Source: an uncultured Rickettsiales bacterium
GTDB lineage: Bacteria > Pseudomonadota > Alphaproteobacteria > Rickettsiales > SXRF01
Assembly (NCBI GenBank): GCA_964535825.1
Contig: CAZHUC010000004.1
Span: forward strand, 97,065-161,064
DNA: 64,000 bases
Reading direction: 5' to 3'
Below, piece by piece: positions 18,456-18,740 of the stretch. The notes under the pieces are model-generated. The model was given only the letters and a program-made list of their open reading frames with translations. It did no database searches and had not been told where the DNA came from. Made by a program: the position numbers and the translations under genes. Each line of letters begins with the position of its first letter. Within the stretch, counting starts at the first letter, position 1.

Positions 18456-18740
18456 TTACCCCAAACTCATCCCAGCGCCTTGGCCGACATCGCGTTGAGG
18501 CTGTGGTGCTTCCTGAGGAATGCCTTTATTTACATTACCCAGATCAGCGCGGGAAATATCAGCCATCGAGCCATTGAGCTGTGCGGCCATGCCCGCGCTC
18601 ATATTCAGCGCAACAGGTATGGAACTCACTGAAACTGCCGAGTATCCGGCATCTTCCATGCCGCCGGCAGCTTCACGCACACCCTTGGATTCCGGGGCCA
18701 TGACCTCTGCAACGCGTGATATAAGACCTGTGGTTTTCAT
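18456..18740 (-). CDS. Hypothetical low-complexity protein with ISRADLG...MSLG tail (94 aa)
   Basis: Own sigma70-like promoter immediately upstream; tail resembles that of 58205-58753. Confidence 0.7.
   Translation of the reverse strand: MKTTGLISRVAEVMAPESKGVREAAGGMEDAGYSAVSVSSIPVALNMSAGMAAQLNGSMADISRADLGNVNKGIPQEAPQPQRDVGQGAGMSLG

Follow-up and report, generated by a model that had tools for sequence, protein, structure and literature searches.

Two unlinked genes in a 64,000-nucleotide stretch of the genome of an uncultured Rickettsiales bacterium encode small proteins, here called P0001 and P0002, that share a C-terminal tail. The whole stretch is referred to as the window (C4:97065-161064 of a genome of 1.92 Mb in 12 contigs, ~50% G+C). 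The shared tail is real, and it is a portable peptide of ~25-30 residues found on otherwise unrelated proteins that lack signal peptides, in a set of uncultured Rickettsia relatives of free-living type. As the likeliest of several readings, though with low confidence, we suggest that the tail may be a portable, clade-restricted C-terminal targeting peptide read by one conserved partner of a non-Sec export machine, with the rvh (Rickettsiales vir homolog) type IV secretion system (T4SS) as the favoured candidate. In the following, G000 is the genome of the window, the other G, L, f and g labels are anonymous handles for genomes, loci, families and genera, and P0001 and P0002 with their respective relatives are called fam1 and fam2.

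The proteins of the window are alike in their tails only

The likeness was first noted in a sequence-only reading of the window, which described two orphan proteins of 94 and 182 aa with a common C-terminus, poor alignment elsewhere, no signal peptides and leaderless genes. We recovered both open reading frames (ORFs) on the minus strand with the same translations (Table 1); P0001 ends ISRADLGNVNKGIPQEAPQPQRDVGQGAGMSLG and P0002 ends ISRAELGSFSPPAVGTGQDMSLGLG. Compared with other tails, the one of P0001 has ~5-8 inserted residues (KGIPQEAP). A Sec-like N-terminus was found in no carrier when scanned with a simple hydrophobic-run heuristic, and each gene has a -10 hexamer (TAGAAT for P0001, TATAAT for P0002) 6 nt before the ATG, in agreement with the leaderless layout that had been proposed. 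BLASTP of the pair gave E=0.076, and comparison of the fam1 and fam2 profiles by hhalign aligned the tails only (E=3.3e-4). When the tails were removed nothing was aligned (E=0.14), which does not support the weak IPVALN/VPLNLN similarity that the same reading had pointed to. Because the pairwise BLASTP is weak, the case for the tail rests on relatives.

Neither protein is an orphan as first thought. For P0001, a search among 5.8 billion proteins gave five orthologues, of which four have 94 aa and one has 81 aa, with identities of 71-78%; it was also matched in two genomes of its own genus, and a syntenic relative occupies the proS-X-lolC position of G020, which belongs to another genus. For P0002, the search of the 5.8 billion proteins gave 16 relatives and a profile search of 1.84 billion cluster representatives gave 68, nearly all of 98-217 aa, and all of them unnamed and without a Pfam domain; no annotated distant homologue was found among the cluster representatives. 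Whole-genome searches found fam2 orthologues in most genera of the home family, and the tail is kept in orthologues from 16 of 19 genera. The fam2 architecture consists of a polar N-terminus, a conserved core (GGFLAKLLHSIFIKNREITDHTxGVGG), a Gly/Asp-rich linker and the tail. An AlphaFold2 model from the fam2 alignment had a mean pLDDT (predicted local distance difference test) of 49.6 with a few short low-confidence helices, and we read P0002 as a largely disordered protein on the basis of this prediction.

To Pfam and NCBIfam neither P0001 nor P0002 gave a match, and single-sequence and profile searches of Pfam, NCBIfam, PHROG and PDB returned no family for P0001, P0002, the third carrier described below or most other carriers. 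The PDB matches that did appear (alpha-glucosidase, designed Gly linkers) were judged to be chance.

Table 1. Features of the two window genes (positions in the window) and carriers of the tail in other genomes
Feature	Position	Strand	Length	Remarks
P0001 gene (fam1)	18456..18740	-	94 aa	ORF and translation; acidic, tail carrier
P0001 tail module, residues 62-94	18459..18557	-		ISRADLGNVNKGIPQEAPQPQRDVGQGAGMSLG; tail HMM E=2.3e-11
P0001 sigma-70-type promoter	18747..18775	-		TTGGCA (18775-18770), 17-nt spacer, TAGAAT (18752-18747), 6 nt, ATG; consensus match only
P0002 gene (fam2)	58205..58753	-	182 aa	ORF and translation; acidic, Gly-rich, predicted mostly disordered, tail carrier
P0002 tail module, residues 153-182	58208..58297	-		YDFIPISRAELGSFSPPAVGTGQDMSLGLG; tail HMM E=1.4e-13
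P0002 -10 hexamer and 6 nt before ATG	58754..58765	-		TATAAT (58765-58760); leaderless layout
P0002 Pho-box-type repeat	58788..58805	-		TTGTCAC-AATA-ATATCAT; 22 nt upstream of the -10 hexamer
G114 (f12) carrier			~261-264 aa	Lys/Glu-rich coiled coil
G087, G164, G222 (f9) carriers			254-310 aa	
G231, G200 (f9) carriers			353, 390 aa	
G166 (f14) carrier			354 aa	
G265 (f13) carrier			288 aa	
G130 (f8) carrier			1458-1461 aa	ORF; no Pfam or PHROG family
G133, G273, G223 (f13) carriers			341-380 aa	N-terminal PG_binding_1 (E=7.6e-15; 1.6e-11), Gln/Glu-rich middle, no signal peptide

A third protein of G000 with the tail

The pattern suggested for finding further carriers, SRA[DE]LG...G..MSLG, and its first half SRA[DE]LG each matched only P0001 and P0002 in a six-frame scan of the genome; a tail hidden Markov model (HMM) built from fam1 and fam2 added a third carrier. 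This protein of 117 aa (C11:26569-26922; fam3) ends YVADADIQDLGQLSPMNFGVSQNSTDLFRS, scored E=0.013 before and 1e-6 after its inclusion in the profile, and retains the tail in its orthologues from three congeners. The wider tail profiles gave no fourth carrier in G000. It had been argued that a lack of further motif proteins would speak against a tag; with three proteins carrying the motif this objection holds only weakly for G000, and the same low number rules out a general effector signal.

An unannotated, Pho-box-driven protein of 172 aa on C6 (gene start at 145369, minus strand) was considered as a fourth carrier. Its end (..NLGNLTYNANLPGQQ.., closing in ..EVREGNLGNLTYNANLPGQQEKQSIAALLS) resembles a degenerate tail but did not reach significance with any tail profile.

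As with the first pair, fam3 and fam2 were aligned by hhalign in the tails only (E=6.4e-5). With the tails removed fam1 and fam3 did not align (E=0.61), and fam3 and fam2 shared a weak N-terminal helix (E=1.6e-3), the only case of even weak similarity beyond the tail between any two carrier families; fam2 and fam3 may thus be distant paralogs. The sequence-only reading had left two options for the tail: a translocation tag peculiar to the lineage, or the core that members of a small paralog family have in common. The first gained support from the extreme C-terminal position of the tail on unrelated, signal-peptide-less proteins in at least nine families. The second fits only P0002 and the third carrier, and since just one pair of carrier families is weakly similar outside the tail, a modular C-terminal targeting tag fits better than a paralog core. 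That the resemblance is due to chance, or marks a small paralog family with no addressing role, we regard as very improbable: the weak BLASTP score of the window pair and the fam2/fam3 helix would agree with it, but the motif ends 66 distinct proteins from nine families whose remaining parts are mostly without detectable similarity, profile E-values reach 1e-15 per genome, and the N-terminal part of fam1 is unlike both fam2 and fam3.

Composition and distribution of the tail

The tail forms the last ~25-30 residues of at least 66 distinct proteins. Its core motif is hydrophobic-G-x-[LF]-[STA]-P ... G-x(4-6)-G-[MI], within the consensus aromatic/hydrophobic - x2-4 - [VIM]-[SP]-x-[AE]-x-[LI]-G-x-[LF]-[STA]-P-x-x-[TVL]-[PG]-x-[MV]-G-x(4-6)-G-[MIL]-x-x(0-3)-COOH. 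The tail lies at the extreme C-terminus: 24 of 25 matches with E up to 1e-3 stop 0-7 residues short of the stop codon, and in 63 of the 66 carriers the core starts a median of 23 and a minimum of 20 residues before the C-terminus. Most carriers are net acidic (58/66) and free of Cys (60/66). In the last 30 residues G, P, S and M are enriched and K and E depleted; the tail is also depleted in K, H, W and C, with P at 8.7% vs 4.5% and M at 5.9% vs 4.1%. A K or R occurs within the last 15 residues of 48 of the 66 carriers, and the terminal residues vary (G, D, S, M, A, V, K, R, H).

Tail detection was profile-based, by which divergent tails are missed (e.g. in G008 and G016), and carrier starts in other genomes were set to the first Met. 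In the home family, 35 of 44 genomes (30/35 of high quality) encode one to three carriers, mostly a fam2-like protein of 150-215 aa, and tail profile E-values per genome go down to 1e-15. Across the order, 56 of 401 genomes were tail-positive, from at least nine families; 32 of these belong to the home family and 24 to f8, f9, f12, f13, f14, f17, f29 and f39. The profile search of the same 401 genomes gave zero matches in the classical reduced Rickettsiales families. Carriers range from 81 to ~1460 aa overall and from 132 to 1461 aa outside the home family, where those of 264, 254, 354, 353/390, 288, 256 and 1461 aa have no detectable similarity to the window proteins beyond the tail. Three f13 carriers combine the tail with an N-terminal peptidoglycan-binding domain (Table 1), and the C-terminal region of one of them (G133) matched only itself when used as query.

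Promoters of the carrier genes

Two of the three carrier families of G000 share a Pho-box-type promoter with the virB2 pilin gene, as judged from sequence motifs. Upstream of fam2 genes, TTGTCAC-N4-TTGTCAC(ATGATTTT) is conserved before orthologues across many genera, and fam3 orthologues are preceded by a perfect CTGTCAT-AAAA-CTGTCAT. A position weight matrix (PWM) scan of G000 gave ~40 Pho-box-type sites, one of which precedes a TrbC/VirB2 pilin gene (Pfam 5.9e-16); this gene shares its strand with virD4, which follows 10 kb downstream. The leaderless layout of fam2 is also found in genera g1 and g2; in more distant genera the leader is longer and has a Shine-Dalgarno-like GGAG/AGGA. The sigma-70-type promoter layout of P0001 is kept in two orthologous loci of the same genus.

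A possible export tag of the rvh T4SS

The mechanism we propose would be as follows. In each genome the tail would mark one to three proteins that are made in the cytoplasm, lack a signal peptide, are acidic and are mostly disordered. The tail would be recognised by one conserved partner, which we think of as part of a non-Sec export machine. P0002 and fam3 would be co-induced with the T4SS pilin from their Pho-box-type promoters, and P0001 would be made constitutively from its leaderless sigma-70 promoter. Export of the carriers from the cytoplasm, and the T4SS as the one machine among the candidates that reads the tag, are our inference; the motif, its modularity, its extreme C-terminal position, its distribution, the promoters and the presence of a T4SS are what the sequences show. 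An address outside the cytoplasm is suggested because peptidoglycan-binding cargo occurs without a signal peptide and because the make-up of the carriers is substrate-like; the f13 carriers with PG_binding_1 must exit the cytoplasm to meet their ligand.

Several points favour the rvh T4SS as the machine. First, two carrier families appear co-regulated with the pilin gene. Second, there is a precedent for C-terminal tails that bind RvhD4, namely those of RalF and RARP-2 (PMC11077975). Third, peptidoglycan-binding proteins have been proposed independently as ancestral rvh effectors: Schön et al. 2022 suggested that a bacteria-killing rvh T4SS of basal Rickettsiales uses them as effectors (PMC9352585). 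Moreover, the tail resembles the signals of known VirB/D4 T4SS substrates (VirE2 and VirF of Agrobacterium; RalF and RARP-2 of Rickettsia). It is likewise a peptide with predicted disorder that occupies the very C-terminus, in the last 20-50 residues, of proteins that have no Sec signal and are encoded in genomes with an rvh-type T4SS, two of them from the same promoter type as a pilin gene. The K or R near the end of 48 of the 66 tails also counts in favour.

Other observations weigh against this reading and keep our confidence in it low. The known VirB/D4 signals are defined by positive charge, whereas the tail is conserved, neutral and rich in Gly/Pro/Ser/Met; the last 20 residues have a mean net charge of -0.14 and no Arg pattern. 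Only one to three carriers are found per genome, and the remaining Pho-box-type sites of the ~40 in G000 precede unannotated genes for proteins without the tail, which together indicate that the tail is not a general T4SS signal. No Pho box precedes P0001. A coupling protein is encoded in the carrier genomes, as VirD4 (PF02534) was found in all tail-positive genomes, which is what the sequence-only reading had proposed to look for, yet it is also present in 43 of 44 home-family genomes and 392 of 400 genomes of the order, including classical Rickettsiales families that have no tail; being near-universal, its co-occurrence has no discriminating power. No carrier was seen adjoining T4SS genes, several lie near flagellar genes and one sits in the tape-measure slot of a gene transfer agent (GTA) cluster, so that several loci hint at flagellar or GTA links.

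Another parallel is the XVIPCD (Xanthomonas VirD4-interacting proteins' conserved domain) of the bacteria-killing T4SS effectors (X-Tfes) of Xanthomonas, which is also a portable, sequence-conserved C-terminal module on unrelated cargo, some of it peptidoglycan-binding. The XVIPCD is a folded domain of ~120 residues on at least 10 effectors per genome, unlike the tail with its ~25-30 residues. It presumably has a Pfam model, and no secretion-related Pfam family was found in P0001, P0002, 16 fam2 members or 10 carriers from other families. Neither were lipoprotein immunity genes seen beside the carriers.

On what the rvh T4SS delivers in basal, apparently free-living Rickettsiales, published work offers only peptidoglycan-binding-domain proteins as candidate bacteria-killing effectors (PMC9352585, PMC11077975). 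A motif on exactly such proteins, and on a family-wide disordered protein co-regulated with the pilin gene, provides a concrete and testable handle. It is possible, though we would not count on it, that the ancestral rvh T4SS of free-living-type Rickettsiales has in the tail its first recognition motif that is defined by sequence and can be transplanted, or else that the tail belongs to a protein-delivering GTA-like particle. In both cases the proteins that it marks for delivery would be few and conserved (the fam2 protein, the peptidoglycan-binding proteins and the giant of 1461 aa), and it would give a direct handle on the role of the machine before Rickettsiales became intracellular. If the receptor is flagellar or GTA-derived it would still be a new addressing system, and should the motif serve only for docking inside the cell, its carriers still make up an unannotated protein family with at least 66 members.

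Intracellular docking and other C-terminal signals

The last-mentioned alternative, a short linear motif that acts as docking peptide or degron for a cytoplasmic protease adaptor, chaperone or regulator while the carriers stay inside the cell, is unlikely in our view. It would account for the small number of carriers per genome and for their predicted disorder, which is frequent in hub-binding proteins; many tails also finish with small or hydrophobic residues (..GVA, ..MAA, ..GLA). A cytoplasmic partner could be the small acidic protein of f13, of 96-118 aa and with the motif LEQFATTIAALA, which is always encoded directly upstream of the peptidoglycan-binding carrier (L127:4807-5151, L107:1674-2030, L128:3603-3893); it has no homologue in G000. 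Against this, the final residues are not conserved, there is little sense in a cytoplasmic cargo that binds peptidoglycan and has no signal peptide, and the acidic, Cys-free make-up is typical of exported substrates. Given the variable terminal residues, a carboxylate-reading PDZ domain and an ssrA-type or ClpX-type degron were considered unlikely forms of such a motif.

The type I secretion system (T1SS), with its ATP-binding cassette (ABC) exporter, membrane fusion protein (MFP) and TolC, also uses a C-terminal signal and no N-terminal one, and Rickettsiales use it for effectors. Descriptions of T1SS signals note a low content of K, H, P, M, W and C. That the tail is such a signal seems improbable to us. 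As for the family I.3 lipases and serralysin proteases, the carriers are acidic, Gly-rich and Cys-free proteins, here with sizes from 81 to ~1460 aa, that have an uncleaved C-terminal tag, and many tails end in an acidic residue with hydrophobic ones after it (..DMGVA, ..GMEM, ..AIEV), like the serralysin and lipase motif. The acidic, Cys-poor composition with a C-terminal signal only is found in most carriers (58 and 60 of 66, as above). The LG-x-L-S-P-P core, however, has no counterpart in the known signals, which are usually not conserved in sequence between unrelated substrates, and the enrichment of P and M in the tail is contrary to the described bias. The Gly/Asp runs are unlike the RTX (repeats-in-toxin) nonapeptide, no RTX repeats are present, and in the neighbourhood of the carriers, to which the look for T1SS genes was confined, neither an ABC nor an MFP gene was noticed. 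T1SS has been listed for Rickettsiales (PMC9352585).

Two further kinds of peptide were compared with the tail. Encapsulin cargo-loading peptides are likewise conserved and C-terminal, come after a flexible linker rich in Gly, occur on few and unlinked proteins of a genome and share recurrent ...SLG endings; this reading was rejected because the family-1 shell gene PF04454 was unmatched in G000 in a search where control genomes were matched and other encapsulin families were not included. The double-glycine leaders of ribosomally synthesised and post-translationally modified peptides (RiPPs), with LSxxELxxIxGG at the N-terminus and a variable core behind it, have a look-alike in ISRAELGSF. This one lies at the C-terminus, with PP where GG would be expected and with a conserved rather than a variable end after it, and the reading was rejected on these grounds; a C39 peptidase was not searched for.

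Flagellar export

As several carriers lie near flagellar genes, the tail may instead bind a flagellar export chaperone or dock to a basal-body or rod component, with export by the flagellar type III apparatus, although we consider this distinctly unlikely. The chaperones FlgN, FliS and FliT bind the C-terminal region of their late substrates, and such a recognition element has its likeness in the tail. The fam3 gene lies between a D-Ala-D-Ala carboxypeptidase gene and flgH and is convergent with the flgH-flgA-flgG-flgF cluster, at its edge. In two of the three f13 genomes, the carrier and its small acidic partner are found beside fliX-like, flgK-like and rod-binding-like genes (named by eye), in a layout that resembles chaperone-substrate pairs, and a peptidoglycan-binding protein with no signal peptide recalls the FlgJ-type rod-associated factors. 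FlhA was found in 23 of the 24 tail-positive genomes outside the home family vs ~42% of the tail-negative ones, and in 43 of 44 home-family genomes.

This association is confounded by phylogeny and lifestyle, however, and at least one carrier genome has no FlhA match: G134 (95% complete) has a clear fam2-like carrier and no FlhA match, and its congener G151 (100%) likewise gave none. Conversely, family f26 is flagellated and lacks the tail. The elements recognised in late substrates are amphipathic helices of axial proteins and not Gly/Pro-rich peptides, P0001 and P0002 are encoded outside flagellar loci, and the promoters of the carriers are of Pho-box or sigma-70 type, where no search for a flagellar promoter was made.

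In G000, flhA (C4:170921-172924) is located 15-22 kb from the fam2 gene, and this spacing is seen in at least six genera (G000, G002, G004, G007, G008, G021, G022, G047). The proximity may reflect conserved regional synteny rather than a functional link. The fam2 gene itself lies between pntA and apaG, and the fam1 gene between proS and lolC, where a predicted membrane protein of 239 aa (window 17688-18407, plus strand) is encoded between proS and P0001. G020 carries other genes in the proS-lolC gap, which appears to be a variable insertion site.

Gene transfer agent and tail-like particles

An additional explanation is that the tail is a docking peptide for a tail tip like that of the Rhodobacter capsulatus GTA (RcGTA), where it would anchor tape-measure-like or inner-tail proteins that are ejected into the periplasm of the recipient; like the flagellar role, we find this rather unlikely. 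Endosymbionts of the Rickettsiales and Holosporales have known GTA clusters (PMC9254644). The RcGTA tape measure, with only 216 aa, functions as a trimer and enters the periplasm by ejection (PMC7296036), traits that fit one to three carriers per genome and a peptidoglycan-binding cargo. In G114, the tape-measure slot between the tail tube gene (Phage_tail_2) and the distal-tail/hub genes (DUF2460/g12, Gp84_N/BR0599) contains a single ORF that reaches 70 aa, and this ORF is the coiled-coil carrier (L129:4939-5724). G000 has an RcGTA-like cluster (C1:217000-243000) with protease, capsid, connector, g8, g12, g13, g14 and g15 genes. The cluster is remodelled: g9-g11 are not at their usual site, and the tail tube gene g9 is found by itself at a distance of 80 kb (C1:144201-144617). 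A canonical tape-measure gene was not found, and a phmmer search with three canonical g11 proteins from the order gave no match in G000.

Beyond G114 the evidence does not agree with a tape-measure role. The position expected for g11, between the tail tube/assembly chaperone genes and g12, fits only the G114 carrier and neither P0001 nor P0002, and the prediction for P0002 shows no long N-terminal helix such as a tape measure has. In 30 other loci of the order, the tail profile did not match any ORF directly upstream of g12, the conserved slot family of 330 aa is unlike the tail (hhalign E=0.59), the canonical tape measures of the order end ...ARRNL, and PHROG gave no matches. Furthermore, g12 (E up to 1e-60) is not among the matches listed for ~8 of the 24 tail-positive genomes outside the home family, including G035, G130, G134 and G152 (95-99% complete) and G166 (91%). 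Across the G000 cluster, the 30 g12-centred loci, the g11 searches, hhalign and PHROGs, the tape-measure reading was therefore supported by G114 only.

A few features of these clusters were seen in passing. The g9-g11 slot of G000 is filled by four unannotated genes (805, 390, 533 and 330 aa), some with Pho-box-like sites upstream. In the GTA head module of G000, a strong Pho-box-type site (CTGTCAC-AAAA-GTTTCAC, C1:218801) precedes a gene for 157 aa just upstream of the portal gene. Within the GTA clusters of both G000 (C1:237568-238098) and G114 (L129:7483-7959), a gene for a DUF2335 membrane protein lies between g13 and g14; such a gene (L126:6421-6873) is also found two genes from the 1458-aa carrier of G130, where it adjoins a DUF2336/HEAT protein.

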